Of a stretch of DNA of 64,000 bases, positions 17,037 through 60,146 are shown one piece after another. The stretch's first letter is position 1. Each line of letters starts with the position of its first letter. Position numbers and translations under genes: made by a program. The notes below the pieces were generated by a model. That model had not been told where the DNA came from, made no database searches, and saw nothing but the letters and a program-made list of their open reading frames with translations. This stretch comes from Nitrospirae bacterium MYbin3. GTDB lineage: Bacteria; Nitrospirota; Thermodesulfovibrionia; Thermodesulfovibrionales; Dissulfurispiraceae. The stretch is taken from assembly GCA_002753335.1 (NCBI GenBank), contig PEAD01000012.1, forward strand, positions 1 through 64,000, written 5' to 3'.

Positions 17037-17048
17037 TTAAACACTCCG

Positions 17049-17588: not shown

Positions 17589-17603
17589 GATTTAAAGTAG
17601 GTA

Positions 17604-17612
17604 ATTATAGCA
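17604..17612 (-). promoter_or_regulatory. Extended -10 promoter between motB and pilZ
   Basis: TGCTATAAT on the minus strand in the 38-nt gap. Confidence 0.5.
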
Positions 17613-17626
17613 CATTGTCGGTTCAG

Positions 17627-18265: not shown

Positions 18266-19023
18266 TCTTCGACCCTGCTGCTTTCATCAAGAAAAGCATT
18301 AAGCCGCATTTTTAGAAAGTAAGGGTTAACACCGCTTTCTATGCCTATGATGCCCTCGATTATGAGTTCTCTAAGCTGAATCTCTTCGTTCATCCTGTTG
18401 ATTATCTTCTTGGCCATAGGCAAAAAAACGAGGTTGGCCGAAGCGACGCCGTAAACCGTAGCCACAAAGGCAACCGCGATTCCGCTGCCTATCTTAGAAG
18501 GGTTAGACACATCCTGCATAACCTGTATGAGTCCCAGCACAGCGCCTATTATGCCTATAGTCGGCGCATAGCCCCCTGCTGATTCAAATACCTTTGAAGC
18601 CTTTTTTATGCGCTCTTCGTAGGTTACTATCTCCTGATATAAAATTTCTTTTATCATTGCCGGAGACATACCGTCAATCATAAGAGACAAGCCTCTTTTC
18701 AGAAACGGGTTGTCGATTTTCTTTAGTTCATCTTCGAGCGCTATAAGTCCCATTTTACGGGCCTTAACTAAAATGCCGAGTATCGATTGTATTATTTCGA
18801 GAGGGTCATGCTGCTGTCGCATGAAAACCACAGAAATAGCCTTAAATGCGTTAATCATGTCTTTTGCCGAAAAACTCAACAGTGTGGCGCCGAAGGTTCC
18901 GCCAAAAACTATAAGACCTGCAACTAACTGGACAAGATGCCCTGCATTGCCGCCCTCCAGCACGTTGCCGCCTATTATAGCGCCGAGCCCTATCAGTATG
19001 CCTAAAAATGCTGCTATGTCCAT
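18262..19023 (-). CDS. motA: Flagellar stator A subunit, short (MotC/PomA-like) type
   Basis: GGYAPTIGIIGAVLGLI, IAVAFVATVYG; ATGA-coupled to motB. Confidence 0.9.
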   Translation of the reverse strand: MDIAAFLGILIGLGAIIGGNVLEGGNAGHLVQLVAGLIVFGGTFGATLLSFSAKDMINAFKAISVVFMRQQHDPLEIIQSILGILVKARKMGLIALEDELKKIDNPFLKRGLSLMIDGMSPAMIKEILYQEIVTYEERIKKASKVFESAGGYAPTIGIIGAVLGLIQVMQDVSNPSKIGSGIAVAFVATVYGVASANLVFLPMAKKIINRMNEEIQLRELIIEGIIGIESGVNPYFLKMRLNAFLDESSRVEE

Positions 19024-38906: not shown

Positions 38907-41900
38907 ATGCATGCTGCATCAGGAAAATACATTCAAGGCTTTGAACATTGTCTATTCAGGCTGTTTCATAATACGCTTCTTTATTCTTTGCCTGTCTTTC
39001 TGACGCTTATATTTGCGAACATATCTTTTGCTGAAGAGCAATGGGCCAAGACCTTCGGCGGCTCAGGCCGGGAAGAGGCATATTCAGTAGAGCAGACTAG
39101 CGATGGCGGATATATTGTTGCCGGCTACACTGATTCGTTCGGTGCAGGCAATGAAGATGTATGGGTTATGAAGTTCGATGCCAGCGGCAATATAATGTGG
39201 CAAAAGACTTATGGAGGCACAGACAGCGACTGGGCAAACTCTATAAAACAGACTTCTGACGGCGGGTACATAGTTGCCGGTGTTACATATTCTTTTGGAG
39301 CAGGCAGTTCCGATATTTGGGTGCTGAAGCTTTATGACAATGGGTCTGTGCAGTGGCAGAATACATACGGAGGCACAGACAGTGACTTTGCCAACTCGGT
39401 TAGCCAGACCAGCGATGGCGGATATATTGTTGCTGGAGTAACCTATTCGTTCGGAGTTGTCAATGCGGATGCGTGGGTTTTGAAGCTCGCGGCTAACGGG
39501 ACTGAGCAATGGAATACAACATACGGCGGTGCAGGCAATGATTTTGCGAACTCTATTCAACAAACTTCGGACGGTGGATATATTGTTGCTGGGGACACAG
39601 ACTCTTTTTATACGGATTATGCTGACCATAGGTACGAGAACAGGAATGTCTGGGTTATAAAGCTAAACCCCACAGGAGGCGTCACATGGGAGCGTATATA
39701 CCAAGGCACCTCATTTGACTTTGCGAACTCTGTGCAGCAAACAAGCGATGGTGGCTATATCGTTGCTGGCTACACGTGGTCGTCCGGCGCAGGCAACGAG
39801 GATGTATGGATACTGAAGCTGGCAGATACAGGCGCTCATCAGTGGCAATACACTTACGGAGGCGCTTACAATGACTGGGCATATTCTGCCAGACAGACCT
39901 CTGATGAAGGCTTTATCGTTGTTGGAGTCACCTATTCTTTTAATTCGGCCAACGGTGATATTTGGATTCTAAAACTTTACAATAACGGCACTATCCAGTG
40001 GCAGAAGTCTTATGGGGGAGTTAGCGGAGACGGTGCTTATTCGATACGCGAGACTTCTGATGGCGGCTATATTGTTGCAGGAGTCACGTATTCGTTCGAT
40101 GCGGTGAGCGGCGATTTCTGGATTCTTAAGCTGCCCGGAAGCGGTTCGATCACCTTTTCTGCCGGAAGCGGCGCATCCCAAAACAATACCAGTTCGACTT
40201 TGGCAGCCAGCTTTATCAAGTCGGATGTAGTAACAGTATTCTCAACGCTTAACCCCGTGGACAATGTGTCGAATACATTTGTTACTCCTAAGGACAGTCT
40301 TGCTGCTGTAGCTTCCCAAAGGGAGGGGACATGTTCGTTCACTCTCTCATCAGACAATAAATCTTATACATCTGAAGGAGGTGTGGATAATGTAACGGTT
40401 GCCGCTTCTCTTGGCAGCTGCACATGGCAGGCTACAACGAGCAGCTCATGGATAACCATTACCTCAGCGACGAATTTTACAGGAAGCGGCACTATGAGTT
40501 ACTCATATCCGGTCAACACGGGAGCTGTGAGGACCGGAGCGATAATCTTAGGCGGGAAAACGCTTTCTGTGACACAGAACGGCTGTACCTTTGCGCTTAC
40601 GTATGATAACACTTCATTTTCCTATTCAAGTGGAACCCGCAGCATAATAATCAGTCCGTCAAGTCAGGAATGCACATGGGAGGTTGTGAATAACTCCTCA
40701 TGGATTTCGATCACTAACAATACGAGCGGTTCAGGCAGTTATACGCTTGGATATTCTGTTTCGGCGAATACAGCATCGAGTATGCGCACTGCCAATATTA
40801 CTGTAGCAGGACAAACGGTCACTATAACGCAGGAAGCTATCTGTAGTTATACACTTTCGTCCTTGGAGCAAGCGTTCACTTCGACTGGCGGCAGCGGCAG
40901 CGTGAATGTAACCGCAACTCCGTCGAACTGTTCATGGAGCGTAAGCAAAAACGCAAATTGGATAACCCTTACTTCGGCCACGAGCGGCACTGGAAACGGC
41001 ATAGTGACATACACAGTGGCTGGCAGATCAGATTCAGGGCCCAGTTTTTCTGGCGCGCTAACTATTGCCGGTCTGACACATTCCGTTACTCAATCGGCTG
41101 CTACATCAGGCCAGTCAAATAATTTAGCCGGAACCAGCGGTTCAGGGACAGGCTCAACAACGGTGACAGGTACAGGAACGACCGGTACAACAGGAACTGG
41201 CACAACCGGCAGTTCGACAACAGGAACCGGTGGTACTACAGGACAGACGGCTACAGTTGTGGTTGGCGCCGATACTCCTATTTTTGCAACCGCTTCAGAC
41301 CAGGTTACAACATCCTCTTCTCAATCAGAAAGCGCGGCTAAGGCAGGTGTGTCGGTTCCGGGCAGCGGATGTTTATACACCCTCTCTTCATCGAGTGTTT
41401 CGATGGGACCTGCCGGCGGCACGGGATCCGTAACGGTTTCTGTATCTTCCAAATCTGCCAACGCATGCACATGGATTGCTTCGAGCGGTTCTCAATGGAT
41501 ATCCATAACAGGAGGAGGGTCTGGAGCAGGCACAGGTGTTGTAAGTTTTTTTGTATCGCCCAATAATGGCAGGGAGAGAACCGGCTCTCTTGCAATAGCC
41601 GGACAAACGATTGTTGTAACACAGGAAGAGCTGCCGTGCACATATTCGATAAATCCGCAGGGGCAGGCTTTTAGCAGCTTCAAGGGTTCTGGTTCAGTTG
41701 TGGTTGCGGCGTTTCCTGAATATTGTGTTTGGGATGCTTTCAGCAGCGATTCATGGCTTTCGGTTTCTTTTGGGGACAAAGGCATGGGCAATGGGGTGGT
41801 TTATTACGGAGTTGCCGAAAATGCAGGCTCCGCTGCCCGTGTCGGCACTATCAAGATCGCTGGATATACGTTTCCGGTTACTCAGGAAGGCGTGCAATGC

Positions 41901-43421
41901 AATTTTGTGCTGTCTAAGAGCGCTCATAATTTTGGCGTTTCGGGTGGAGAGGGCGATGTCATGGTTTCGACCATCGATCCGAAATGCCCTCGTGATGTTG
42001 TCAGCAATGCCGACTGGATAAAAATTACTTCAGGAGATTCAGGGACCGGAAGCGGAACCATAGGCTTTTCGGTGCCTGCCAATACAGGGGCACCCAGAAA
42101 ATCTACATTTACGGTGTCTGGCAGGCCGTTCACCGTATCACAAGGTTCAGACTGCGCCTATGCTATTTCTCCTCTAAGCAAGTCTTTTAGTTTGTCCGGC
42201 GGCAGCGGTGAAATAGAGGTTAAGACCTCTATGAGTACCTGCAAATGGGATGCAGCATCAGAGGTTGAATGGATCACCGCAAGCGGGTCGGATACCGGCG
42301 GCGGCAGGCTTCAGTTTTCGGTTTTGGCCAACAGCGGACCACCGAGAACAGGAACAATAACTGTTGCGGGGCAGCAGTTTACGGTCACTCAGGGTTCGGA
42401 TTGCGGGTACGAGGTTTCTCCTACAAGCCAAGCGGTTGGTTTAGGCGGAGGAACAGGAACAATAAACATAAAGACCTCTGCCGAATCATGCATAAGAACT
42501 GCTTTGAGCAATGCGGACTGGATAAATGTTACCTCCGGCTCGGAGGAAAAAGGTAGCGGTGCTATAACTTTTTCTGTTGCGGCCAACAGCGGGCCGCCAA
42601 GGACCGGGACTATCAGTGTTGCTGATCAGTTGTTCACCGTTACTCAAGGTTCGGAGTGCGCATATACCGTATCCCCAACCAGCCAGTCTTTCAGCATAAA
42701 TGGAGGATCTGGAGCTATAAGCATAAAAGCCTCGCGAGGCGACTGCAAGTGGGAAGTTGCCAACAGCGCAGACTGGGTTGTATTGACCTCGCCACCTGCA
42801 GGAAGGGGCAGCGGTATTGTCCGCTTCACCGCGATATCTAATACAGGCCTGCCGAGAAGCTCTAAAATTGAGGTGGGAGGCGCCAAGTTTGCTGTATCGC
42901 AAGAGGGCTGCGGTTATACTGTTTCACCCGCTATGCTCAATTATCCTGCAGGAGGCGGAACCGCGAGCTTGAGCGTAAAAACAACCGGTGATAAATGCAG
43001 CAGGGAAATAAACGCGGTTGTTGATTGGATAAATATAGGTTCAGGCAAGAATGAGTTAGGCAGCGGCAGCATTCTTGTAAATGTTTTCCCCAACAAAGGT
43101 CCTGCAAGGAGCGAGCAGATATTTATAGGCGGACAGGCTGTGATGATTAAGCAGGATTCGGGCTGCTCGTTTAGTTTTTCGTCCCAGACTCAGTCTTTTG
43201 GAGCATCCGGAGGCCAGGGCAGCATTTTCCTGAAGGCATCTTCGGATGTATGCATCCCTCAAGCCGTAAGCGGTTTAGACTGGATAGTGATCGATCCGGC
43301 AGTTGGTGAAAAATCTGCCGGAGTTGTAAAATATTCAGTATTGGCGAATACCACCGGCAAAAAGAGGGAAGGCTTTATAACAGTTTCTGGCAAAAGGTTT
43401 GTTGTAATTCAGGATAAATAA
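38907..43421 (+). CDS. Large secreted protein: 7-repeat beta-propeller, 11 BACON-like Ig repeats and a Thr/Gly linker
   Basis: Seven TSDGGYIVAG-type repeats; eleven C-x-[YF]...C...W[IL]...G.G...[NG]...R...[VI]TQ units; signal peptide ending SFA. Confidence 0.85.
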   Translation: MHAASGKYIQGFEHCLFRLFHNTLLYSLPVFLTLIFANISFAEEQWAKTFGGSGREEAYSVEQTSDGGYIVAGYTDSFGAGNEDVWVMKFDASGNIMWQKTYGGTDSDWANSIKQTSDGGYIVAGVTYSFGAGSSDIWVLKLYDNGSVQWQNTYGGTDSDFANSVSQTSDGGYIVAGVTYSFGVVNADAWVLKLAANGTEQWNTTYGGAGNDFANSIQQTSDGGYIVAGDTDSFYTDYADHRYENRNVWVIKLNPTGGVTWERIYQGTSFDFANSVQQTSDGGYIVAGYTWSSGAGNEDVWILKLADTGAHQWQYTYGGAYNDWAYSARQTSDEGFIVVGVTYSFNSANGDIWILKLYNNGTIQWQKSYGGVSGDGAYSIRETSDGGYIVAGVTYSFDAVSGDFWILKLPGSGSITFSAGSGASQNNTSSTLAASFIKSDVVTVFSTLNPVDNVSNTFVTPKDSLAAVASQREGTCSFTLSSDNKSYTSEGGVDNVTVAASLGSCTWQATTSSSWITITSATNFTGSGTMSYSYPVNTGAVRTGAIILGGKTLSVTQNGCTFALTYDNTSFSYSSGTRSIIISPSSQECTWEVVNNSSWISITNNTSGSGSYTLGYSVSANTASSMRTANITVAGQTVTITQEAICSYTLSSLEQAFTSTGGSGSVNVTATPSNCSWSVSKNANWITLTSATSGTGNGIVTYTVAGRSDSGPSFSGALTIAGLTHSVTQSAATSGQSNNLAGTSGSGTGSTTVTGTGTTGTTGTGTTGSSTTGTGGTTGQTATVVVGADTPIFATASDQVTTSSSQSESAAKAGVSVPGSGCLYTLSSSSVSMGPAGGTGSVTVSVSSKSANACTWIASSGSQWISITGGGSGAGTGVVSFFVSPNNGRERTGSLAIAGQTIVVTQEELPCTYSINPQGQAFSSFKGSGSVVVAAFPEYCVWDAFSSDSWLSVSFGDKGMGNGVVYYGVAENAGSAARVGTIKIAGYTFPVTQEGVQCNFVLSKSAHNFGVSGGEGDVMVSTIDPKCPRDVVSNADWIKITSGDSGTGSGTIGFSVPANTGAPRKSTFTVSGRPFTVSQGSDCAYAISPLSKSFSLSGGSGEIEVKTSMSTCKWDAASEVEWITASGSDTGGGRLQFSVLANSGPPRTGTITVAGQQFTVTQGSDCGYEVSPTSQAVGLGGGTGTINIKTSAESCIRTALSNADWINVTSGSEEKGSGAITFSVAANSGPPRTGTISVADQLFTVTQGSECAYTVSPTSQSFSINGGSGAISIKASRGDCKWEVANSADWVVLTSPPAGRGSGIVRFTAISNTGLPRSSKIEVGGAKFAVSQEGCGYTVSPAMLNYPAGGGTASLSVKTTGDKCSREINAVVDWINIGSGKNELGSGSILVNVFPNKGPARSEQIFIGGQAVMIKQDSGCSFSFSSQTQSFGASGGQGSIFLKASSDVCIPQAVSGLDWIVIDPAVGEKSAGVVKYSVLANTTGKKREGFITVSGKRFVVIQDK

Positions 43422-46697: not shown

Positions 46698-47939
46698 ATG
46701 GAGAGGTTTTTGAAGAAACCACTGGTATTTTATCTTATTGATGATGACTTGGATGTTTTGACCCTTGTTAGGTTTTTGCTGGAAGACGCCGGTTATCAGG
46801 TATATTCTTCAACTTCGAGCAAAAAGGCTGTTGAGGAGATAATCGCAAAACGCCCCGATGTGGTGTTGACAGACATAATGATGCCTGAACTTGATGGCTT
46901 TGAAGTCTGCAAAAAACTCCGTGAGGTCGACGAACTTAAGAACACAAAAATAATAATGCTCACAGCAAAGACATATGATTTTGATCGCAGAAGGGCGCAT
47001 CAATTAGGGGCTGATGACTATGTGCACAAACCCTTTATTACAGAAACTTTTGTAGCACAAATAGAAGCATTGATAGCAGACCGCATGACCCTAACTTACT
47101 GGGGAGTCAGGGGTACACTACCTGTGCCGGGCAATAGAGCGCTGCGTTATGGCGGAAACACATCATGCGTTACGCTTTCTTTTAAAGATGATCAGTTTTT
47201 TGTTTTTGATGCCGGCACCGGGATAAAGGAGCTGTCAGACCATCTGCTGTCTCAGGGAAAGTTGAAAAGCTCTGCGAAAATTTTTATTTCGCACCCTCAT
47301 TGGGATCACATAAACGCTTTGCCTTTTTTTGCTCCAATGTACATACAGGGAGGAGAATTCGAGATCTGCGGGCCTCTGCAGGGCGATATGACAATGCGCG
47401 AGATGATAAGCTACCAGATGGACAGCATTTATTTTCCGATCACTATTCGTGAATTCGGAGCAAGGGTTTATTTCAGAAATCTTCGTGAAGAAAAAATATC
47501 ATATGATGGTACGGACATATCAACCATGCTTTTGACCCATCCTGGAAATTGTTTAGGGTATCGCATAAAGCGTAAAGACACCACTGTATGCTACGTGACC
47601 GACAATGAGTTGTTTCTTGACGGAGCTCCAGAATTTAATGCAACTCAATTCAATAAATTGGTATCTTTTGTGCAAGGTGCAGATATTCTTATCACAGACA
47701 CCACATACAGTGATGAAGAGTACAAAACAAAGGTGGGATGGGGGCATTCCTGTGCAAGTCAGGTGGCTCGTCTTGCACATAATGCAGGAGTTGGGACGCT
47801 CCATCTTTTCCATCACGACCCCAGCCAAGACGATGATGCTATAGATAAAAAACTGGCTCAGGCAGAAAAGGCTTTAAAAGAGCTGGGATCTTCAACAAAA
47901 TGCATCGCACCTGCAGAACGTGACAGCTTTACCATATGA
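46698..47939 (+). CDS. Response regulator receiver fused to an MBL-fold metallo-hydrolase (phosphodiesterase-like)
   Basis: LTDIMMP receiver; WGVRGT, YGGNTSC, SHPHWDH, GWGHS, FHHDP; start may be TTG 46710. Confidence 0.88.
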   Translation: MERFLKKPLVFYLIDDDLDVLTLVRFLLEDAGYQVYSSTSSKKAVEEIIAKRPDVVLTDIMMPELDGFEVCKKLREVDELKNTKIIMLTAKTYDFDRRRAHQLGADDYVHKPFITETFVAQIEALIADRMTLTYWGVRGTLPVPGNRALRYGGNTSCVTLSFKDDQFFVFDAGTGIKELSDHLLSQGKLKSSAKIFISHPHWDHINALPFFAPMYIQGGEFEICGPLQGDMTMREMISYQMDSIYFPITIREFGARVYFRNLREEKISYDGTDISTMLLTHPGNCLGYRIKRKDTTVCYVTDNELFLDGAPEFNATQFNKLVSFVQGADILITDTTYSDEEYKTKVGWGHSCASQVARLAHNAGVGTLHLFHHDPSQDDDAIDKKLAQAEKALKELGSSTKCIAPAERDSFTI

Positions 47940-47967: not shown

Positions 47968-48270
47968 CTACTCGTAAACTATTTCCAAACGGTCGAGGTA
48001 GTCAGTAAGTTCGTCGATCAGTTTTTTTATCTCAGTGCCGTCACCGCTTTTTGCTGCGCTCTCAAGTGTTCTGCCCATTTCGGTTATCTTGTCAAACCCA
48101 TAACCGCTGCCCGAACCCTTCAGGTCATGACCTATTTTGCGCAAGCCATCATAATCGTTTTTTGCCAGCGCCTCACTCAACAAACCAATATCCCTGTGTC
48201 TGTTGTCGATATATCCCGGTACAAGGTCTGCTATATCAGGGTCGACCTTTACAATGATTTTCTCAGGCAT
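47968..48270 (-). CDS. Stand-alone Hpt phosphotransfer protein
   Basis: GHDLKGSGSGYG. Confidence 0.9.
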   Translation of the reverse strand: MPEKIIVKVDPDIADLVPGYIDNRHRDIGLLSEALAKNDYDGLRKIGHDLKGSGSGYGFDKITEMGRTLESAAKSGDGTEIKKLIDELTDYLDRLEIVYE

Positions 48271-48286
48271 GTTTCACCTCACTTTA

Positions 48287-49273
48287 TTAACCTTTTCCAT
48301 CATAATATTCCGCCCTGTTCCTTCCTTTTTCCTTTGCTTTGTAAAGAGCCTTGTCAGCTTCGTTGATAAGCTTTTCTGTTGATGACTCCATTGTCGGGAC
48401 AACGGATGAGACCCCCAAGCTTAAGCTCACCAGACCGTATGAAGACTTGTCATGAGGAATACTCAGGGAAAAAATATTTTGACGCATCTTCTCTGCAAGC
48501 TGCATTCCGCCCTCTTTGCCTGTGTCTTGCAGCACAACGATAAACTCTTCTCCCCCATATCGCGCTACCAGATCTCCCGGTCTATGAACCGCAGCCTTTA
48601 AAACAGCCGCAACCTTTTTGATTACTTCATCTCCGGCCTGATGCCCATGTGTGTCGTTATAGAGTTTAAAATGGTCGATGTCAGCCATGATTATTGACAG
48701 AGAGGCCTCATTCCTGACTGCACGGCGCCATTCTTCATAAAGGTAATGGTCAAGGAAGCGTCTGTTTGCGATATTTGTAAGGCTGTCGATGGCAGATAAA
48801 GTCTGCAGCATTTTGTTTGCGGTTTCGAGCTGCTGCATCGTCTCAAGCAGCTCTTTTTCGCGGGCTTTTCTCTGGTCCATTTCGTGCTTCAATCTCAGTG
48901 CGGAACTGACTCTCGCCAGGAGTTCTTCTTTTTTAAAAGGTTTTTTGATATAGTCCATAGCTCCAACTGCAAAGGAGTTCTGTAGATCCTGAACTGTTTC
49001 GTTGGCCGTGAGCATGATTATCGGGATATCTTTAAAAGCCTCGTGATTCTTAATTGTCATTGTAAGCTCGATGCCGTTAATTCCGGGCATCATGATATCC
49101 ATTAGTATCAGTTCTATATCATTGTTAGGACTCAGATTCTCAGATAATCCGACAAAAGTCATTGCTTCTTCAGCAGAGCTGCAGCTAACTAAATCCTTAT
49201 AGCCTGCGTTCTTCAGGAAGGTTTCTGTAATATTAATAATATCTCTGGAGTCGTCTATAATCAGAATACTCAT
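48287..49273 (-). CDS. REC-GGDEF diguanylate cyclase
   Basis: LMDIMMP receiver; RPGD I-site and GGEEF. Confidence 0.92.
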
Positions 49274-52200
49274 AGGTTTCCGTGCCTTGCTATCGCCTCA
49301 AACAGCGTCGCTTTTTTTATAGGTTTTGTGAGATGCCCGTCGCATCCGGCCACCATGCTTTTCTGCTCATCTTCTTTCATTGCGTGTGCCGTAAGTGCAA
49401 TAATAGGCGTCCTTTTTTTGTTGTCCTTAAGTTCTATTTCACGAATATGCCTTGTGGCATCATACCCATCCATCACCGGCATTTGTACATCCATTAAAAT
49501 AATATCATACTTGCCTGCCCTGAATTTTTCTACCGCGATCTCCCCATTTTCTGCCGTTTCGACAGTATGCACCGTCTTTTTCAGATACGAAAGCATGAGG
49601 AGGCGGTTGTCCTCATTGTCCTCGACAAGCAGTATGTTCAAGGCTTTTTCTCCGCTTTTTTGACTGGAGGAGGAAGAAACCGCTTCAGCTTTTTTTGAGG
49701 ATATTTTTTCTGCTTTACCGACTTCAAACTGCGCTGTGAAAAGGAATGTGCTGCCTTTGCCGATTTCGCTCTCCACCCATATTTTGCCGCCCATAAGTTC
49801 GACCAGTTTTTTTGAAATGGCAAGGCCGAGGCCTGTGCCGCCGTATTTTCTGGTTGTTGACGAATCGGCCTGCGTGAATTTATCGAATATGATGCTCGCT
49901 TTTTCGGGTGGAATTCCGATTCCGGTATCCTTCACAGAGAAGCGCAGTTCTACTATTTCAGAGCCTTGAGAGGTATTAACCGAACTCAGTTTTTCAACAC
50001 CGATCACAATCTCACCCTGCTCGGTGAATTTTATTGAATTGCCTACAAGATTTATAAGAATCTGCATCAGGCGATGAGGGTCTCCGATTAGGTCGGTAGG
50101 AACATCATTAAGCAGTGTACAGCCTATACGGATGCCTTTTGCAACCGCCTTTACCGACATGAGTTCACATAATGTCTTAAGAATAGAGTTAAGGTCTAGT
50201 TGTGTATTCTCAAGGACTATAAGGTCCGCTTCCACCTTGGACAGGTCCAGTATGTCATTTATTAGGCCGAGAAGATTTTCACCAGCATTACGCGATATGT
50301 CAACATACTTGCGCTGCTCCGCATTCAATTCAGACTCCAGCAGAAGGTCGGCCATGCCGATTATTGCATTCATGGGCGTCCTTATTTCATGGCTCATAGA
50401 GGCCAGAAAATCGCTTTTAGCCTTGTTTGCTTGCTCCGCCTCCTCTTTTGCTTTTTGCAATGCCTCTTCGTATTGCTTGCGCTCTGTTATATCACGGATG
50501 ATTCCGGTGAAAATGCGGCGATTGGTCAGAAATACCTCGCTTACTGATAGCTCTATCGGGAAGGTTGTTCCATCTTTGCTTTTACCGACCACTTCACGCC
50601 CGACACCGATAATGCGCTTATTGCCTGTAGTGAGATAGTTTTTCATGTAATTGTTGTGATTGCTGTGGAAGGGTTCCGGCATAAGCATCTTGATGTTCTT
50701 TCCGATTACTTCAAGCGCGTCATAGCCGAATATTTTTTCGGCAGAAGCATTAAAGCTTTCAATTAGCCCGTCTTCATTTATGGTGATAATTGCATCCACT
50801 GTATTGTTCAGAACAGTGCTCAGCCTGCGTTCTCGTTCCTGCAGCATCAATTGGCCCAGTTTCTGCTCTGTTATATCCATCCCTATGCCGAGAAATCCTC
50901 TGACATTTGCTTTCTCATCAAAAAGGGAAGTAACCGAAAGCCGCACCTTGAATTTGCTGCCGTCTTTCCTAATATAAGTCCATTCGTTTTCATCCGGAAC
51001 TCCATGTCGGGCCTTTGCCACTAAGACCTCAAACCCCGGTTTTATTTCAACGCCCAATTCTGCTGAAAGTTCTTTTGCCCTTGCAGTCACTTCTTCAGGG
51101 GCATGGATAATTGCCGGGGTTAACTTATTTACTACTTCCTCAGACCTATAGCCAAGCATATTCTCAGCAGCACGGTTGAAAGTCAATATTGTGCCTTCAG
51201 AGTCTGTGGATATAATCGTAAAGTTTGCGCTGTCCAGAATGGTTTTTATAAGCTCATTGCTCTCCCTGAGTTCTGATGTTCTTTCTTTTACGATTTTTTC
51301 AGTTCTTCTCTGTTGGCCTGATAGGGCTAGCAGAAAAGAACTCAGAAGTCCGCTAAAAAAAAGTCCTCCGGCCAGCAGGCTCCAAGATTGCAATGACTTT
51401 GTTCTAATGATATATTCTTCGGAAGGCCAGAAACGGATGCTCCAACCCCTATCGGCAACCCTTATGTGCTCTAAATGCCAGGTTTTTGAAGGTGAAGGCT
51501 CTTTTGTGTTTGTGACGGTATTGTTTGAGTAGAGAAATTTGTCTGTGCCCTCTGTATCATCATCATAGATGCTTAAATTTATTTCCTTAATTTTGAGATT
51601 ATCAAGAGAGTGTTGAATCATTTTTTCGATTATCAAAGCGCCTGTTATGTATCCTTTGAATATCGTATTAGGTTTTTTAATATCTGCGTCGATTGAATTG
51701 TGGATAAAAAGCGGGGTCATGAATAGAAAACCGTAGCGTTTTTTATCATCCTGAACCAGTTCAATTCTTTCGGTCGCAACAATATTGTTTGTGTCGTGTG
51801 CTTTTTTAAGAGCAGCTAAGCGCTTGGGGTTTGACGCGAGATCGAAGCCGAAGGCTTTCTCATTGCCTTTGTATGGTTCAAGATAATCTCAAGGGACATA
51901 GGCGGAACGTTTTGAGGCCGGAACGAGTTTGCCGCTATGGTCTCTCTCTGCTATAAAAAATGAAGGGTAACCGTCGCGCCTTGCCGTAGCTTCATATTTT
52001 AATCTTTCGGAATTTGGAACATTTGGCGCCCATGAAAGGACCTGGACTCCTTTATGTTTCGACAAAGACTCCTCTGTAAAAATTTTAAACATCTTTCTGT
52101 CAATATTTCCGGAACTTCTGAAGAAACTCGCAATCGATCTTATTATGTCCTCATGTATATGAACGTCGGTCTGAATTGATAAAGCCATTATTTTGGCTTG

Positions 52201-52887
52201 GGCATTAAATTCTGCTCTGATTCTGTCTTCTTCTTCTTTGCTTGCATAAATATATGAAAAAATCGAAAGCATAAGTGTTATAAGAAGAGGCAGTGCAACA
52301 GATATTTTTCTTTTCCTCCAAGTTTCTGCTGGTTCGGCGAACCATATAAACATCAGGGGAGTGGCTATAATAACTCCGATTACATCACCCACCCACCAAG
52401 TCAGCCAGTTGATGAGAAGTCCTGTTTTGGTCATGACCCCGGCCGATATAAGTGTCGATGTTCCTATGGTAGCGCTCGAGATGCAGGCTATTGGGGCGCC
52501 AAGAATGAAAAACTTGGCTATTGTTTTTCCATCTTCCAGAGCATTCGGAAAGCCTACAAAACGTTTTATCAGAAACGCTCCGAAAAGGGCCTGAATTGCT
52601 GCGCCGCTTCCGATGCCTGATGATACAAGCAGTGATTTTAAAATGGTCTGAGAGCTTGATGTATCAAAAGAAAGTGAGAGGTTTATAAGAAAAGAGCCAA
52701 GCCAGACAGCAGGCCAGAGGCGGTAGCCATAAAGCAATAGACCGGCGAGGGCGACTCCAGATGCCGGGAAAATAGCGGTAGCATAACCGGGCGGCACGGC
52801 AAGAAGCAGGCCTAAACGCCCCGATAGAAAGTAGGCTGCTGCAAACCCTATAATTTTCATAACGGAACTATTTATACCGATGGGCAT
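49270..52887 (-). pseudogene. MASE1-CHASE-PAS-PAS-HisKA-HATPase-REC hybrid kinase interrupted by one in-frame TGA at 51889-51891
   Basis: Track ORFs 51889..52887 and 49270..51720 share a frame; the gap reads [26 protein letters not shown]...LVQ...GFLFMTP, an intact CHASE core. Confidence 0.82.
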
Positions 52888-52900
52888 AGTTGAAGAAATA

Positions 52901-53278
52901 TTATTTTTTTACCACTCCGCTGATTTTGTTGCCGATAATCTCTGCAGTGAACGGTTTGATAATATAGTCGGTTACCCCTAATTTCATGGCATTGAGAATG
53001 TATTCCTTTTCATTATGTGCGGTGACCATAATGAAAGGTATATCCTTAATGCCATCCTGTTCTTTCATCCATTTGAGTATTTCATCGCCATTCATTTCGG
53101 GCATCTCCCAATCGCACAGCACAACGTCGTATGTATTTACTTGGATCTTGCTTAGAGCATCCTTTCCGGAGCTTACCAAATCCATCTCGATATCAGGAAA
53201 GGACATTTTTAGAAACGATTTTATGAGCAGCCTCATTTCTGCCACATCGTCAATTACAAGAACCTTAAGCTTTTTCAT
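52901..53278 (-). CDS. Single-domain CheY-like response regulator
   Basis: VIDD, CDWEMP, FIMVTA, IIKPF. Confidence 0.9.
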   Translation of the reverse strand: MKKLKVLVIDDVAEMRLLIKSFLKMSFPDIEMDLVSSGKDALSKIQVNTYDVVLCDWEMPEMNGDEILKWMKEQDGIKDIPFIMVTAHNEKEYILNAMKLGVTDYIIKPFTAEIIGNKISGVVKK

Positions 53279-53281
53279 ATT

Positions 53282-54985
53282 TTACAACTCCTCTTCAACA
53301 ACGGTTACCCTGTCCAGTTCTTCAACTGTTGTTAGACCACGCAGGACTTTTTTCATGCCGTCGTATCTTAGGGTTGTGTAGCCGGTTTTCTTTGCGCGCT
53401 CTTGTATTTCGAGGATGGATGCGCCTTTTGAAACAAGCTTTCTTATTTCGCTGTTCATGATGAAAATTTCGTGTATAGGGATGCGGCCTGAATATCCTGT
53501 TCCATTGCACTGCTCGCAACCCTTACCCCGATAGAAAACTACTTCGGTTTTGCCGTCGGAGATGAAGTAATCTTCGACCTCTTCAGGCGACAGGTTGTAT
53601 GGCTCTTTGCAGTTGTCGCATATTTTACGCACAAGCCTCTGTGCCATTACCCCTATAATTGAAGGAGCAACAAGAAACGGCTCCACTCCTATCTCCATTA
53701 GTCTTGTTACCGCTTGAAGCGAATTGTTGGTGTGCATGGTGGTAAGCACCAGATGTCCGGTAAGCGCCGCCTGTGAAGCGATCTTGGCCGTTTCTGCATC
53801 CCTGATTTCTCCCACGAGAATAATGTCAGGGTCCTGCCTGAGGAATGAGCGCAGGGCAGAGCCAAAGTCGAGATTGATGGTATGGTTTACCTGCACCTGA
53901 TTGACACCTGTAAGCCTGTACTCTACGGGGTCTTCTATGGTCATGATGTTGATTCCCGGTTTGTTGAGTGACTTCAGTACCGCATAAAGTGTAGTTGTTT
54001 TGCCCGAACCGGTTGGTCCGGTAACGAAAAAAACACCGTTTGGCGAGTCGATTATTCTATTGAGAGTTTTCATAACGGTAGTCGAAAAGTTCATCTCTGA
54101 AAGGTCAGGCACCTCTTTCTTCTTTATCTGACCGAGCACTCTTAATACAATTTTTTCACCATATATTGTAGGTACGCTCGAAAACCTGAAATCTGCTGAA
54201 TGGGTGGTCAATTCAAGGCTGACTCTGCCGTCCTGAGGCTTTCTCTTTTCGGTTATATCCAGTTTTGCGATTATCTTAAGTCGTGAAACAAGTGGAGCAA
54301 GAAGCCGCGAATCCAGTTTAAGCCTTTCTTGCAGGACACCGTCTATTCTAAACCGTATCTTGACCTTCTCCTCTTCAGGTTCGATATGGATGTCGCTTGC
54401 CCGCTCTTTCATCGCAAGCAAAAGCATATTTCTTACGAATTCAACCACCGCCTGATCCCCGGCAAGTTTTTTGAGCTGCTCCTCGGTTATAGTTGAAGTG
54501 CCTTTGAACAGGGCGCTTTCGGCAATTCGGTTTACCAGCTCGCTCAGGCCGCTGTCCGATTGGTAATTGATATCGATGGCATCTTTTATTTCGTCAGAGA
54601 AAGAAAACACAGGACTTACAGGACAGCCTGCCAAACGCTCCGCCTCTTTAAGCGCTAATGTATTAGTCGGGTTTGCGACAGCTATTGTAAGGGCATCACC
54701 GAGTTTGTAGAGCGGAAGCATAACATTGTTGCGCGCAAAATTTTCGGGGATTTTTTTTATCGCATCCGGCTTTATAAGTGTCTTTGCGATAGGGACGTAA
54801 GCTATGCCCAAGGAGTCCCCCCACATTTTGCCCAGCAAATCTCTTTTAGCTACACTTCCTTTGGCAAGGTAAGACAGGATGGCGCCGGCATTGCCGCCGA
54901 ATTTTTCATTGAGTCTTTCGGAATCCTCCTGAGTCAGTATATTTTCATCTATGAGCGCTTTTATGAAAGATGGATTCTTAAGCAT
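53282..54985 (-). CDS. PilB/GspE-family traffic ATPase with a degenerate MshEN-like N-terminus
   Basis: ASDIHIEP, GPTGSGKTT, TIEDPVEY, LRQDPD, GHLVLTTMH, CDNC/CEQC zinc motif; likely start ATG 54985. Confidence 0.92.
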   Translation of the reverse strand: MLKNPSFIKALIDENILTQEDSERLNEKFGGNAGAILSYLAKGSVAKRDLLGKMWGDSLGIAYVPIAKTLIKPDAIKKIPENFARNNVMLPLYKLGDALTIAVANPTNTLALKEAERLAGCPVSPVFSFSDEIKDAIDINYQSDSGLSELVNRIAESALFKGTSTITEEQLKKLAGDQAVVEFVRNMLLLAMKERASDIHIEPEEEKVKIRFRIDGVLQERLKLDSRLLAPLVSRLKIIAKLDITEKRKPQDGRVSLELTTHSADFRFSSVPTIYGEKIVLRVLGQIKKKEVPDLSEMNFSTTVMKTLNRIIDSPNGVFFVTGPTGSGKTTTLYAVLKSLNKPGINIMTIEDPVEYRLTGVNQVQVNHTINLDFGSALRSFLRQDPDIILVGEIRDAETAKIASQAALTGHLVLTTMHTNNSLQAVTRLMEIGVEPFLVAPSIIGVMAQRLVRKICDNCKEPYNLSPEEVEDYFISDGKTEVVFYRGKGCEQCNGTGYSGRIPIHEIFIMNSEIRKLVSKGASILEIQERAKKTGYTTLRYDGMKKVLRGLTTVEELDRVTVVEEEL

Positions 54986-55127
54986 CTTTCTTAACCTTGG
55001 CTTTTTGCCTTGCCTGCACAAGTTTTTTAATGTCATCCTGAGTCAGTTTTTTTGTTTTGGCTCTTTCTGCTTCCTCGTCTTCTTTTATCTCAGCAAGCAG
55101 TTTTTTTAGGTCCAGTCTCTCGTTCAT
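54978..55127 (-). CDS. Unannotated 49-aa helical protein
   Basis: MNERLDLKKLLAEIKEDEEAERAKTKKLTQDDIKKLVQARQKAKVKKDA; GGAGG SD, ATGA overlap with the upstream REC gene and 8-nt overlap with the ATPase start. Confidence 0.75.
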   Translation of the reverse strand: MNERLDLKKLLAEIKEDEEAERAKTKKLTQDDIKKLVQARQKAKVKKDA

Positions 55128-55519
55128 TGCAAGCCTCCCAGGCAACCCAGCCAGGATTCTTCTATGAGTTTCTTCATCTCTGCTAGAGGTGTATCTTTTC
55201 TTATGTAATTGGATGCACCGTCCTCAAGGCATTTTTCGACTATGCTGAGATCGGAGACGGATGTGAGCATAATAACAAGCGCATCAGGAAATTCAGCTAC
55301 TATCTCCTTAAGCGCTTCTGTCCCTGTCTTCAACGGCATATTTATATCCATTAGAAGCATGTCTGGTTTTTCTTTTCCAAACAACTCGATAGCTTCAATT
55401 CCATTTTTAGCCTCACCTACAACAGTGTAATTCATCATGGTGAGGGCTTTTTTCAAAAGCAGTCTTATGTGAGGCTCGTCATCAGCAAGGAGAACCCTTG
55501 GAATCCGTATTTCTGTCAT
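55124..55519 (-). CDS. Single-domain response regulator
   Basis: LADD, LMDINMP, MLTS, YIRKD; ATGA overlap with the kinase stop. Confidence 0.9.
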   Translation of the reverse strand: MTEIRIPRVLLADDEPHIRLLLKKALTMMNYTVVGEAKNGIEAIELFGKEKPDMLLMDINMPLKTGTEALKEIVAEFPDALVIMLTSVSDLSIVEKCLEDGASNYIRKDTPLAEMKKLIEESWLGCLGGLQ

Positions 55520-56397
55520 TTTAGACCTCCTGTTGGTAGTGAGAAGCAGAATCGTGCACCTTTGCTGGCATTGCTTTCCACCCATATTCTTCCTTCATGA
55601 GCATCTATTATCTTTTTGACTATTGAAAGTCCGAGTCCAGTGCTTTTTTCTCCGCCTGTGGGCCGAGCGCTTAACTTCTGAAACTCACCGAACAGTTTGC
55701 CTTTGTCATCATCAGAAAGCCCCGGCCCTTGATCAGAAACAGATGCTATGGATTCGCCTTTTTCTGAATCATATAAAGCCTCGACCCTGACAGTTGATCC
55801 TGCGGGCGAAAATTTAATGGCATTCCCTATAAGGTTGTCAACCACCTGATTGATACGGCTTTCGTCAAAGGCCAAGTCAGGCAGATTGGGGATGGATGCA
55901 TCTATGACGATATTTTTCTTGCCTGCGGTCATAGAACATATTTTTATGCGCTCCTCAATAACTTTTTTCAGTGAGCCGATTTTCTTTTTCAGGTCGAGCT
56001 TGCCGCTCTCTATGACAGAAACATCGAGAAGTTCATTTACAAGCGAGAGCATCTGGTCGCTTGTTGAATTTATCATTGCGATTATTTCCTTCTGGTCATC
56101 AGTCAGATTTTCGTTATCCATAATCAGCACTTCACTCAACCCGCGTATCGCCGAAAGCGGGTTTCTCAGGTCGTGGGCTGCAATGCCGAGAAATTTGTTT
56201 TTCAACTGGTTGAGCTCCGCAAGCTGTCTTTCAGCTACCGAGTAGCTAAGGACAAGAGTTCTCAGGAGCTTCTTTTTAATTTCCTCGTCCTGTTCCTTTG
56301 CCCTGCGCTCCATTACCTCTCTTATAAGCAGAGTTGTACCTGATGTCCGTGCATTATCTTCTATAATTGAGCGCAGCAGTAGTTGGTCAGTTCCCAT
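55516..56397 (-). CDS. Cytoplasmic histidine kinase without a recognisable sensor domain
   Basis: AAHDLRNPL, NLIGNAIKF, DQGPG, STGLGL; no TM segment. Confidence 0.9.
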   Translation of the reverse strand: MGTDQLLLRSIIEDNARTSGTTLLIREVMERRAKEQDEEIKKKLLRTLVLSYSVAERQLAELNQLKNKFLGIAAHDLRNPLSAIRGLSEVLIMDNENLTDDQKEIIAMINSTSDQMLSLVNELLDVSVIESGKLDLKKKIGSLKKVIEERIKICSMTAGKKNIVIDASIPNLPDLAFDESRINQVVDNLIGNAIKFSPAGSTVRVEALYDSEKGESIASVSDQGPGLSDDDKGKLFGEFQKLSARPTGGEKSTGLGLSIVKKIIDAHEGRIWVESNASKGARFCFSLPTGGLK

Positions 56398-57271
56398 TTT
56401 CTACCGCCATCTTTTTCAGACATGTCAAATCGCCGAGTTCACAGACTTTTATGTCTTCGATAATACTGTCAATGCCAACCGCTTCAAGATTTAAAAGCTT
56501 TTCGCAGATCAAAAGTATGTCCTCTTTTCTGCTTATGATGCTGCCGTGCTGGGGAGCGACAAGAGTGAACTTGTTTTCAGCTATCCGCTCTATGGCGTAT
56601 CTAAGTATCAACCCTGATGGCATCAGTTTTTGGTGAAAGTTGAGGATATCGTGAATAGGGCAGTCACTTTTTCCCTTGCTGCAGGTTTTATAATCGGTGC
56701 AGGTGCGGCAATCCTCTTCCAGCTTAAGAAACAGCTCCCACTGCCTGCTGTAACTGCCGAACAGATCGCTGCTGAAAAGGACTCCGGTTTGTTCATCAAG
56801 TGTGACAAAGCTTCCTGTGGAATGTGCGTAAGGTGTTTTTATAAAACGCAAAGTTCTTCCTGAGGAGAATTTGTATGAGTATCCCATCTCATCTATGGAC
56901 ATCATATCTGAGGTGACATAGTAATGTCTGATAAAAACATTGTTCGTTTTTTCTGAAATAATTTTTAGCTCTTTGGAACCTATGATGTCTTCAAAATTAG
57001 ATAAACTGCCGCATAGGTCAGGATCATAGTGCTGATATATGAGGGCCTTGATAGAATCCGGATTAAGGCCTGTCTGGAGTATTTTCATCATCACGGTCGG
57101 AAAGTCTGGGCGGCTTCCGCCGTCTATCACCATCGCCTCATCGCCGTCCACTATCAGGTACGGATTGCAGTGCAGGCCGGATTCTTTATCAAAAAAGCCG
57201 ACCCAATAAACGCCTTCCGCAATCTTAACAGGACGGTTGTAATCCAGATTTAAATTTGCGATATCGTTCAT
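56387..57271 (-). CDS. ODP-like (oxygen-binding di-iron) MBL-fold protein with a Cys-rich insert
   Basis: CNPYLI, QHYDPDLCG, TPYAHSTG, FSSDLFG, APQHG; no flavodoxin domain; insert CRTCTDYKTCSKGKSDCP. Confidence 0.75.
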   Translation of the reverse strand: MNDIANLNLDYNRPVKIAEGVYWVGFFDKESGLHCNPYLIVDGDEAMVIDGGSRPDFPTVMMKILQTGLNPDSIKALIYQHYDPDLCGSLSNFEDIIGSKELKIISEKTNNVFIRHYYVTSDMMSIDEMGYSYKFSSGRTLRFIKTPYAHSTGSFVTLDEQTGVLFSSDLFGSYSRQWELFLKLEEDCRTCTDYKTCSKGKSDCPIHDILNFHQKLMPSGLILRYAIERIAENKFTLVAPQHGSIISRKEDILLICEKLLNLEAVGIDSIIEDIKVCELGDLTCLKKMAVENGN

Positions 57272-57454
57272 AGATTTGCGCCACCTTTTTATTAAGAATT
57301 TAAACTGCTATTCTGATAATATTATCAGGCAATGCTCATATAGTCAATTGTTTTTAATTGTTTTTTTCTGCAGGTAATTTTGAACGAATAAAGAAAAACT
57401 ATTATGATATAATTAGAGCTATAGTTGATTGCGTATAAACGGGGGAGTTTTAAA

Positions 57455-57850
57455 ATGGGGAAAATTAAAATATTGGTAGTTGATGATGAAAGCACAATAC
57501 GCGAAATTATTAAAGATATGATAACCTCTAATTTGCGTAAGTCATTGCCCGAGATTACCGTTGAAAGCGCAAGCACCGGAGCAGAAGCGATCAAGGATTT
57601 GAAGAATAACAAATACGACCTTCTTTTATGCGATTGGCAACTTTCGGATATGACAGGAGATAAGGTAATAGAGTGCTTGAAGGCTTCGACAGAATTGAAT
57701 CAGACCCCATTTATAATGATCACCGCTTACACCGATAAAGAAATTATCGCCAAGTCGTTAAAGCTCGGGGCGGCAGGATTTATAGTAAAGCCTTTTAATG
57801 CCAAGACTTTAACGGATAAAATAACTCATGCCCTGAAGGCGAGGGCATAA
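57455..57850 (+). CDS. Single-domain CheY-like response regulator
   Basis: VVDD, CDWQLS, FIMITA, IVKPF. Confidence 0.88.
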   Translation: MGKIKILVVDDESTIREIIKDMITSNLRKSLPEITVESASTGAEAIKDLKNNKYDLLLCDWQLSDMTGDKVIECLKASTELNQTPFIMITAYTDKEIIAKSLKLGAAGFIVKPFNAKTLTDKITHALKARA

Positions 57851-57897
57851 ATTCCACCCTAATGTTGGTGGGAACTTTTATATAACAGGAGGATATT

Positions 57898-58287
57898 ATG
57901 TCAGACTTTACCATCAACTCAGGCGCCGCGTTGCCCGGCAATGTTTATACACCACAAAACGACCCCACAAAGGCGGTTAATCGGCCTGCTGTTGCTCAGA
58001 ACACCGGTGTTGTTGCAAAAGATATCGGGACGGTTGTCCTTTCTGTTGAAAAGAGCGAGGCAAAGGCTAAAGAAAAAGAAACTCAGGCCCAGACTCAGGA
58101 AAAGCAGGACTCAATAGAAACAACAAAAAGAGTTCATTTTTCTTATGACCAAGAAAGCGGTGAATCGATCGTCAAGTTTATCGATGATAATGGCAAGATT
58201 GTTCTTCAGGTGCCGTCCGAAGAATACCTTAGGATACGAAGCATGATGAGCAAAGACGCTGAACCGCTTATCAGTAAAAAAGCTTAG
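57898..58287 (+). CDS. FlaG-family protein
   Basis: VHFSYDQESGESIVKFID...IVLQVPSEE...ISKKA. Confidence 0.72.
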   Translation: MSDFTINSGAALPGNVYTPQNDPTKAVNRPAVAQNTGVVAKDIGTVVLSVEKSEAKAKEKETQAQTQEKQDSIETTKRVHFSYDQESGESIVKFIDDNGKIVLQVPSEEYLRIRSMMSKDAEPLISKKA

Positions 58288-58346
58288 AAGCTAATATAAG
58301 TCAACTGATTAAGAGAAGCAGGCATCCGATATGCCGGAAGCAAAGC

Positions 58347-60146
58347 TCAAGCACATGTCCTGTTTCTCCCTTTTTCTTTGGCACGGTATAGTAAGTTATC
58401 AGCATTTTTTACGAGGTCATCAGCGGACTTTAACCCTTCATAAACAGAAGTGACGCCAAGGCTTATAGTAACCCTGCCGTCAGGCTGAGTCTTGCCTCCC
58501 GCAAATTCTGTTGACTCTATCTCTTTTCTCAGCCTCTCAGCTATAGTAAAGGCCATTTCTTTTCCTGTCTCCGGCAATATTACGACAAACTCTTCTCCTC
58601 CGTAGCGGGAAACTATATCGGAGCTTCTAAATATCTTTTTCGCGATCATCGAAAAGTCTTTGAGCAGTTTGTCGCCTTCAGGATGGCCATTTGTATCGTT
58701 ATATTTTTTGAAATAATCTATATCCATCATCACAAGAGAAAGCTCTCTTTTGTATCTGCAAGCCCTTTCAAATTCCTCATTCAGGCGTTCTGTGAAATAC
58801 CTGCGGTTAAAAAGCGATGTCAAGCCGTCCGTAATCGCAAGAATTTTTGTCTCTTCAAACAGCATCGCGTTTTCTAATGCTATTCCAACTTGGCTTGCTG
58901 TGGCGATCAAAAGTTCATATGATGCTTCATCGAAGGTTTCACCGCCCACCCGATAAGCATTCAACAATCCGATCACCTGCCCCCTTCCCTTAAATGGCGC
59001 ACAGATAAGGGAGCTTATGTCATCGTCAAGACCTTCGGTCGGGATAAAGCTTGGGTGGGCAGAAAGATCATTCAGCATTTCGGCAATGCCGATTACAGCA
59101 ATAATCCCGTAAACACCTTCGCCCAGTCTAAAGCGCGCTTCCTGAGCCTTATCCGCTCCTGCTACAATCTTCAGCTCTTTGCTTTGGGCATCTACAAGCA
59201 TCACGCTCAACCTATGGAGCTTAAGCGCTTGGCTCACGCTCTCCACAACCTGATTTAAGAGCTTCTCCATTTCAAAGGTTGCGGAGAGATTTTTGCTTAT
59301 GTTGTAAAGTGCATAAAGCTGGAGTATGTTTTGGTCCAGCCGGCGGTTTGCTTTCTCCAAACTTGCTGAATATTCTTTTACCTCATCTATTTTTTCTTTC
59401 AGGGACTGCGCCATAGTGTTAAATTGGGTTCCCAATAAACCGATTTCGTCATCGTTCTGAACATTGACCCTGTGTTCAAGGTTTCCCTGGCTTATAAGAT
59501 TTGCGGAGCTTGTGAGTTCTAACAGGGGCAAAGCTATTTTCCGTTTGAACATGAAACCAACAAAAAAACTTCCGAATAGGACTATGACTACTATTGCCAT
59601 AAAAATACCGAAGAGTCTTCTGCTTATTGCGTCGGTCTTTTTATTATGTTTATCCATCTCTGACCATATCAGGTTGTGCAGCTTTTCGATTTTTATTGCA
59701 AGATCGCTTCCAAATGCATCCATCTCTTTCATAAGGGCCGATGACTTTCTATTGCTTGTAGGATTGTTTGTTGAAAGAAGCACGAGTGCCTTCTGCTGCA
59801 GCTCAATAAATCCTTTTTCTATTTCTTGCGCCTGCGTTTTTTCATCATCTGCTTTGTTTGCAACAGCCTTCATTTTTTCGAGCAGGGCAGCGGTCTCTGT
59901 AATCAGCTTGGCAAAATTTCTTCTCTCTTCAATGTCTCCTGTTATAAGGTAATCATTAGGGGGCATCAATGTTTTATGAATCAATGACTGGAGGTCGCCG
60001 ACAAGCTCAATTTTATGGGCAAGTTCGATGCTTTTGTTGTTAATGGCCTGATAGGAACTCAGACTTATGTAGCTGAAAACTGCAAATAAAACAAACAATG
60101 CAAAACCGATCCCATGAAAACCTAAAAGCCTCTTTGTTATTCCCAT
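58347..60146 (-). CDS. Membrane diguanylate cyclase (helical periplasmic sensor, HAMP, GAF, GGDEF)
   Basis: Two TMs, DEIGLLGTQFN HAMP, GAF ending IALENA, RSSD I-site and GGEEF. Confidence 0.9.
   Translation of the reverse strand: MGITKRLLGFHGIGFALFVLFAVFSYISLSSYQAINNKSIELAHKIELVGDLQSLIHKTLMPPNDYLITGDIEERRNFAKLITETAALLEKMKAVANKADDEKTQAQEIEKGFIELQQKALVLLSTNNPTSNRKSSALMKEMDAFGSDLAIKIEKLHNLIWSEMDKHNKKTDAISRRLFGIFMAIVVIVLFGSFFVGFMFKRKIALPLLELTSSANLISQGNLEHRVNVQNDDEIGLLGTQFNTMAQSLKEKIDEVKEYSASLEKANRRLDQNILQLYALYNISKNLSATFEMEKLLNQVVESVSQALKLHRLSVMLVDAQSKELKIVAGADKAQEARFRLGEGVYGIIAVIGIAEMLNDLSAHPSFIPTEGLDDDISSLICAPFKGRGQVIGLLNAYRVGGETFDEASYELLIATASQVGIALENAMLFEETKILAITDGLTSLFNRRYFTERLNEEFERACRYKRELSLVMMDIDYFKKYNDTNGHPEGDKLLKDFSMIAKKIFRSSDIVSRYGGEEFVVILPETGKEMAFTIAERLRKEIESTEFAGGKTQPDGRVTISLGVTSVYEGLKSADDLVKNADNLLYRAKEKGRNRTCA

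Follow-up and report, generated by a model that had tools for sequence, protein, structure and literature searches.

A conserved and apparently undescribed five-gene signalling module within a nine-gene cluster of a Nitrospirota bacterium

Gene organization of the locus

The subject of this study is a cluster of nine genes on the minus strand of a 64,000-nucleotide stretch of DNA from Nitrospirae bacterium MYbin3 (contig PEAD01000012.1, positions 1 to 64,000; hereafter the window), which is contig C36 of a host genome that is 93.7% complete. Inside the cluster lies a five-gene signalling module that is real, conserved and apparently undescribed. Its conserved core is an operon encoding a single-domain receiver (REC1), a 49-aa peptide and a PilB/GspE-type ATPase, preceded here by genes for a di-iron protein of the ODP family and a short histidine kinase (HK).

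The open reading frame (ORF) list and Pfam searches of the window gave the domains named in a preliminary description of this DNA (Table 1). Its statement that the nine genes share a strand and overlap or lie at most 16 nt apart was borne out: the junctions from ODP to Hpt are, in order, -11, -4, -4, -8, +3, +13, -4 and +16 nt, that is, between an overlap of 11 nt and a gap of 16 nt. The peptide gene overlaps both of its neighbours, REC1 and the ATPase. Promoter predictions were near shuffle level (23 versus 16.4 +/- 3.6), as were terminator predictions (10 versus 9.9).

Table 1. Coordinates of the cluster genes and their features in the window.
Feature	Position	Strand	Basis or remark
ODP	56387..57271	-	Stand-alone di-iron metallo-beta-lactamase (MBL) fold, four-cysteine subtype; PF19583, 184 bits
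Four-cysteine insert of ODP, C188-x2-C191-x5-C197-x6-C204	56660..56710	-	Alignment
Soluble HK	55516..56397	-	Pfam: HisKA (H75) and HATPase alone; no known sensor domain
N-terminal helical tag of HK (~66 aa), predicted ODP-docking element	56200..56397	-	Profile
REC1, single-domain receiver	55124..55519	-	D13-D14, D58, K108; YIRKDTP signature
49-aa peptide, predicted adaptor	54978..55127	-	Two conserved blocks; no Pfam family
PilB/GspE-type ATPase	53282..54985	-	Pfam MshEN and T2SSE
REC2, CheY-like single-domain receiver	52901..53278	-	Pfam; local add-on
Hybrid HK, MASE1-CHASE-PAS-PAS-HisKA-HATPase-REC	49270..52887	-	In-frame TGA at 51889-51891
REC-GGDEF diguanylate cyclase	48287..49273	-	Intact GGEEF and RxxD; local add-on
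Hpt protein	47968..48270	-	Pfam

Putative GspF, GspG, GspD, MshG, MshL, PilA and PilT sequences from the same genome, together with queries for methyl-accepting chemotaxis proteins (MCPs) and CheW, matched nothing in the window but the ATPase itself. The earlier observation that pilin, PilC/GspF, secretin, MCP and CheW genes are missing from the window therefore stands; CheA was not among the queries, here or at the other loci discussed below, and the kinases seen at module loci are of the HisKA type. The earlier term "orphan" for the ATPase holds locally only, because pilus and secretion machinery is encoded elsewhere in the host genome: a type II secretion system, a PilB-PilT locus, an MSHA-like locus, PilT/PilU and pilins (locus names are taken from gene content), with three platform proteins among the products.

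Conservation of the module in other genomes

When GTDB genomes were scanned with the ATPase, 80 loci emerged. Fifteen of them are closely related and include upstream sequence, and all 15 have a receiver gene and a small ORF directly upstream of the ATPase gene. A peptide profile was built from this small ORF and matched 15 of 201 genomes in the class of one relative (G403). The 14 new loci found by the peptide profile alone have, without exception (14/14), a receiver gene before and an ATPase gene after the peptide gene. In the combined set of 31 other loci with upstream sequence (L017 and L121 were left out, as their ATPase genes start at a contig edge), a receiver gene stands upstream of a gene for an ATPase of the same clade in 31/31, and a free peptide is encoded in 30/31, one of them carrying a double zinc ribbon. 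The loci come from Thermodesulfobacteriota, Nitrospirota, Verrucomicrobiota, Marinimicrobia/Fidelibacterota and Pseudomonadota, and the gene order recurs across these five phyla at 42-61% ATPase identity. In the phylum of the host, the host genome is the only one of 401 to carry the ATPase (950 bits versus 636 for the next, with three candidates scored per genome), and a metagenome scan with generic ATPase patterns gave one clade member among 79 loci.

The ODP and short kinase genes accompany the core at five of the 31 loci. The order ODP-kinase-receiver-peptide-ATPase is the same in G402, G780 and G404 (the last assembled from two contigs overlapping by 55 nt), whereas the peptide has moved in G898 and the genes are rearranged in G401. 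In the phylum of G404, the ATPase profile was positive in 4/401 genomes; all four have adjoining ODP and kinase genes, although the training set included two of them. An ODP-like match is found in only 11 of those 401 genomes. Recurrence thus holds for part of the gene set first described: the half from ODP to the ATPase is co-conserved, but the nine genes are not one conserved unit.

ODP and the short kinase

The ODP protein (294 aa) exceeds the PF19583 cut-off of 27.2 bits by a wide margin and has no flavodoxin domain. Its best sequence matches in the PDB are 6qrq and 6qnm, and an AlphaFold2 model (pLDDT 78.7) has ODPs as its top Foldseek matches. H81, D83, D85, H150, D169, Q241 and H242 are the presumed ligands; apart from the motif-5 Gln, we take them to be so from alignment to 6qrq and 6qnm. 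The motif-5 Gln is described as an ODP feature (PMC7785958). The four-cysteine insert, with the general pattern Cx2Cx5-8Cx6-7C, is invariant in 7/7 aligned ODPs and present in 7/8 further ODP loci, one of which (L204) is also in the seven-sequence alignment. It forms a gap in the alignments to 6qrq and 6qnm, being missing from both solved sequences, and is possibly a second metal site. Short four-cysteine ODPs at L204, L253-L255 and L257 have a class III cyclase on one side and a small helical protein on the other; the latter has a rubrerythrin match in L204 and none in L253, and the others look similar by eye.

A profile of the N-terminal 50-66 residues of six module kinases (the tag) matches the gene next to ODP in five of eight other ODP loci, at 15.7-33.4 bits, while the best of 3,444 control ORFs scored 5.9 bits. 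The five tagged neighbours are four class III cyclases and one SpoIIE protein. Because the tag also heads cyclases and a phosphatase beside the same four-cysteine type of ODP, we predict that it is the element of the kinase on which ODP docks. The proposal that ODP is the trans-acting input of the sensorless kinase fits this association of the tag with one ODP type on other output enzymes.

The kinase itself shares 15-24 of 32 DHp residues with 13/15 module kinases, versus a median of 9 for kinases of its own genome. In Opitutales modules the kinase is instead of the REC-HisKA-HATPase type, although its DHp region is the same, and the DNA fetched around these modules shows no ODP. The input is thus exchangeable, and ODP is not essential to the module. 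Elsewhere in the host genome (G000:C14:3506-5875, equivalent to L300:2207-4573), a CHASE2 HK encoded beside a FecR protein matches the module kinase at 22 of 32 DHp residues and perhaps signals to the same receiver.

The ATPase

The ATPase has the full N1D-N2D-CTD layout, and its best PDB matches are PilF/PilB. It falls below the NCBIfam cut-offs for both PilB (TIGR02538; 554.9 versus 675.65) and GspE (TIGR02533; 567.8 versus 630.25), and has no gsp neighbours. The preliminary description had suggested comparing its phylogeny with that of housekeeping PilB/GspE. In a 100-row tree (a quick method with midpoint rooting, duplicate rows of the same gene and a group chosen by profile score), the 49 module ATPase rows make up one side of a branch with SH-aLRT 99.9, and all five paralogues of the host, including its own PilB (L002), fall outside this separate clade. 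Conserved features are Walker A and B, the Asp and His boxes, the arginine fingers, the pore acids D396 and E398, and four Zn cysteines; the residue roles are those given for PilB-type ATPases in bioRxiv 10.1101/082750, mapped here by motif.

What has been lost is the cyclic di-GMP (c-di-GMP) motif of the MshEN domain, a tandem RLGxx(L/V/I)(L/V/I)xxG(L/V/I)(L/V/I)xxxxLxxxLxxQ, of which imperfect versions can still bind c-di-GMP (PMC5013675). The corresponding NCBIfam model, NF053729, matches 0/10 module N-termini versus 4/4 paralogues of the host, three over the cut-off and the fourth weakly. Several other PF00437 ATPases are encoded in each of five module genomes checked. The host has two further stand-alone PilB-like genes, both on long branches (G000:C15:89360-91597 and G000:C1:11703-13493); one adjoins a MinD/ParA-type gene and one lies behind a GAF protein gene.

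The 49-aa peptide

The peptide consists of two conserved blocks, Y[DS]LxxMLxE and [LIV][DST]Qx[ED]IxxL[FI], joined by a variable linker, an arrangement that would suit two partners. It belongs to an unnamed family of 1,642 proteins at E<=1e-3. No Pfam or NCBIfam family reached its cut-off and the PDB gave nothing significant, while searches of the ESM Atlas with two peptides gave no usable feature match, only structural matches to short helices. Aligned to the N-termini of 25 FliM proteins, the second block falls in register, although the match is weak (pairwise E 0.001, probability 21.7), and 18/32 peptides beat composition shuffles at p<0.05 against the FliM motif of the host genome. The likeness to FliM is suggestive only, because the pattern is partly that of a generic helix cap.

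Two further ideas about the peptide were rejected: that it is a detached half of the MshEN motif (no alignment, E 0.34), and that P0121, the only longer database match, is a real peptide-ATPase fusion (it looks frameshifted). G898 lacks the free peptide; its counterpart there forms the N-terminal end of an MshEN-PilT protein encoded just upstream of ODP. This natural fusion (L231:5473-7140, on G898:C106) retains intact c-di-GMP motifs. A gammaproteobacterial version of the peptide (L019:9531-9872) has an N-terminal double zinc ribbon.

The downstream half and the surrounding island

The hybrid HK was correctly described as to its domains, but an in-frame stop within CHASE, missed earlier, cuts it into ORFs of 332 and 816 aa. 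Read through with X, it is a 1,205-aa protein in which CHASE is unbroken (model positions 2-189, 139.6 bits), and a homologue from the same family has Val at the position of the TGA. The two ORFs are one gene, broken by mutation or by an assembly error. GGDEF and MASE1-CHASE proteins were found at 0/31 other module loci (484 kb, with several short contigs; divergent genes could escape), and a MASE1 homologue in only 2/60 genomes of the family. REC2 is not at the equivalent position in other module loci. Hpt directly follows the ATPase in Opitutales loci, as confirmed by Pfam in L033 and L041, and Hpt proteins or hybrid kinases recur near the core at other loci. We regard REC2, the hybrid kinase, the cyclase and Hpt as a lineage-specific addition, plausibly co-transcribed with the module. 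The c-di-GMP link to the ATPase, which had been part of the system first proposed, is unsupported because of the 0/31 count, the missing MshEN motif and the broken kinase. The c-di-GMP made by the cyclase could have as its targets the housekeeping PilB and the MshE-like motors, in both of which the motif is retained.

The cluster is part of a block of ~13.6 kb (46.6-60.2 kb) that is missing from a 99%-complete genome of the same genus (G1019), where the flanking genes match at 80-84%. In a genome of the same family, yidC is directly followed by an FtsY-like gene. The GC content of the island (44.1%) is that of the genome (44.4%), and a plasmid search gave nothing above 60% identity, the best among the matches listed being 38-43%. 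The block also contains, convergent with the cluster, a gene for a receiver fused to a Lactamase_B_2 MBL domain (46698-47939, +), and is completed at 57425-60146 by a divergent single-domain receiver, a lone FlaG gene and a HAMP-GAF-GGDEF cyclase. Elsewhere in the window are a probable toxin-antitoxin pair (10317-10996, -) made up of a TumE-family toxin gene and an upstream partner of 99 aa, a gene for a 1,504-aa protein with several BACON repeats (38907-43421, +), and a PilZ-domain gene identified by Pfam among MotA/MotB-like stator genes named by eye (16179-19023, -).

Discussion

We put at about even the chance that the five genes encode a single chain, in which ODP acts through the kinase on the receiver, and the phosphorylated receiver acts through the peptide adaptor on an accessory ATPase that works in trans on a pilus or secretion platform. 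The steps would be: (i) ODP reads O2 or Fe(II), which is likely from its family; (ii) ODP docks on the kinase tag and sets kinase activity, a step that their co-occurrence makes quite probable; (iii) the kinase phosphorylates REC1, which we think very probable; (iv) REC1~P binds the FliM-like second helix of the peptide, for which the balance is modestly favourable; (v) the first helix holds the N-terminal domain of the ATPase and so replaces c-di-GMP control, a step we favour slightly because of the PilT fusion, the gene coupling and the loss of the c-di-GMP motif; and (vi) the ATPase, in turn, joins in trans the platform of a pilus or secretion machine. Our levels of confidence in these steps are not independent of one another. 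That the parts bind at each step, which ligand is read, whether the effect is activating or inhibiting and which machine is the target are all inferred, as are the signal (oxygen) and the output (attachment or motility) of the preliminary description.

More tentatively, and at rather less than even odds, the module may represent a new class of motor control. A detached docking peptide resembling that of the flagellar switch would hard-wire a phospho-receiver to a dedicated clade of PilB-family ATPases, with c-di-GMP control exchanged for phosphorelay control. The inputs would be interchangeable; one would be an ODP of the four-cysteine type, which would have a second metal site sensitive to redox state and would couple to whichever output enzyme bears the ~60-residue tag.

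A number of observations weigh against the proposed chain. On the input side, ODP is present at a minority of the loci (5/31), and the ODP of G898 has lost two presumed iron ligands (H81N, D85R). The tag profile missed three of the eight ODP neighbours (one truncated, one at E 0.1 and one beside a non-cysteine ODP), and also the SpoIIE neighbour in G217 (E 0.12). At the docking step, the REC1 loop reads K-D-T versus K-P-F in CheY; the FliM match is weak and owes something to a generic helix N-cap; Gln30 is kept in just 20/27 peptides, and 14/32 peptides do not beat shuffles. The peptide-PilT fusion comes from one genome. Many loci, above all those of Verrucomicrobiota, are kin, so the locus counts overstate independence. 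Finally, queries for platform, pilin and secretin genes matched nothing around the 31 loci (484 kb, some short contigs), and a machine partner is therefore assumed.

This last point also speaks for a different role of the ATPase, as a machine-independent signalling or scaffolding enzyme that, for example, localises or times the receiver-peptide pair and is no filament motor. The neighbours at the 31 loci are solely signalling genes, and the ATPase forms its own clade below the PilB and GspE cut-offs. We nevertheless consider such a role unlikely, as the pore residues proposed to contact PilC (bioRxiv 10.1101/082750) and the Zn module are conserved, other PF00437 ATPases occur in 5/5 module genomes checked, and the host has its three platform proteins. 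Slightly harder to sustain is the idea that the peptide has one partner, as a sink, a phosphatase aid or a PilZ-like chaperone or inhibitor, with the receiver acting on the ATPase directly or elsewhere. Small PilB partners do act as chaperones (PMC12533971), G898 retains receiver and ATPase without a free peptide, and one subclade of Verrucomicrobiota has a weak FliM-like block; the two separately conserved blocks with their variable linker, and the overlap of the gene with both neighbours, argue for an adaptor. That all nine genes form one oxygen-triggered system for ATPase and c-di-GMP, as in the full version of the preliminary description, is improbable: the tight coupling at all junctions, the intact cyclase motifs and the recurrence of Hpt or hybrid kinases near the core fit it, but GGDEF and MASE1-CHASE proteins do not accompany the module elsewhere (some contigs being short), MASE1 is rare in the family, the hybrid kinase is interrupted and the ATPase has no c-di-GMP motif. 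Lastly, the cluster might consist of mobile signalling genes gathered by chance and functionally unconnected; although suggested by the block missing from the same-genus genome, the yidC-FtsY junction and the rarity in the phylum (1/401), this is very improbable given the same order across five phyla and the island's genomic GC content; it is largely refuted for the five-gene half and still holds for the downstream half.

How, then, does the proposed chain compare with known systems? The ODPs of Treponema denticola (TDE2498) and Thermotoga maritima (6qnm, 6r9n, 6qrq, 6qwo) are likewise stand-alone MBL folds with the motif-5 Gln (PMC7785958), and known ODPs are likewise genetically coupled to a sensor-less signalling protein (PMC7666581, PMC6978683). 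The partner there is a chemoreceptor, whereas here it is a HisKA kinase with a helical tag; the present ODP also differs in its insert, in having Tyr for Gln after the first His, and in being about 25% identical (21-24% by Foldseek). The pairing of a single-domain receiver with a short L[ST]Qx[ED]IxxL helix, in register, recalls the docking of CheY~P on the N-terminal EIDALL helix of FliM, a motif whose role is described in PMC9126983. Here, however, the helix is in a free 49-aa protein encoded beside the ATPase, its 'DALL' part is not retained, and no CheW or MCP match lies near the module. Queries for MCP and CheW gave 0/31 at the other loci as well (short contigs included), which also sets the module apart from chemosensory control of pili (Che/Chp/Frz/Dif).

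Two adaptor systems can also be compared. In Xanthomonas PilB-PilZ-FimX, a small protein bridges a signalling protein and PilB's N-terminal domain (PMC8389850), but it does so for c-di-GMP on FimX and a housekeeping PilB, where the present module has a phospho-receiver, a peptide that is unrelated and its own, dedicated clade of ATPases. Archaeal CheF brings CheY~P to a type IV filament machine (PMC9126983); compared here by description, it is a large PH-domain dimer on ArlCDE and not on the ATPase. The module ATPase resembles PilB, GspE and MshE in its N1D-N2D-CTD layout and in all catalytic motifs, and differs from PilB and GspE in its scores, clade and missing c-di-GMP motif; it was never found beside its machine. 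The claim that no system of this composition has been described agrees with our searches of an open-access library, in which we found no receiver-peptide-PilB operon; subscription journals were outside this coverage, as was the original ODP paper, which may list ODP-kinase pairs.

In the systems covered (FimX/PilZ, PilG localisation), two-component signals reach the motors of type IV pili and secretion by routes that are for the most part indirect or not yet settled, and the candidate link proposed here consists of three small, coupled, soluble proteins. The module gives a candidate function to some 1,600 small proteins of an unannotated family, and to an ATPase clade that annotation has filed as PilB/GspE. 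With the tag, a defined candidate for the docking site becomes available in a family of sensors whose contact with the partner remains unclear (PMC7666581). Finally, beyond chemoreceptors, the range of ODPs now takes in kinases, cyclases and phosphatases, for the most part in Desulfobacterota.

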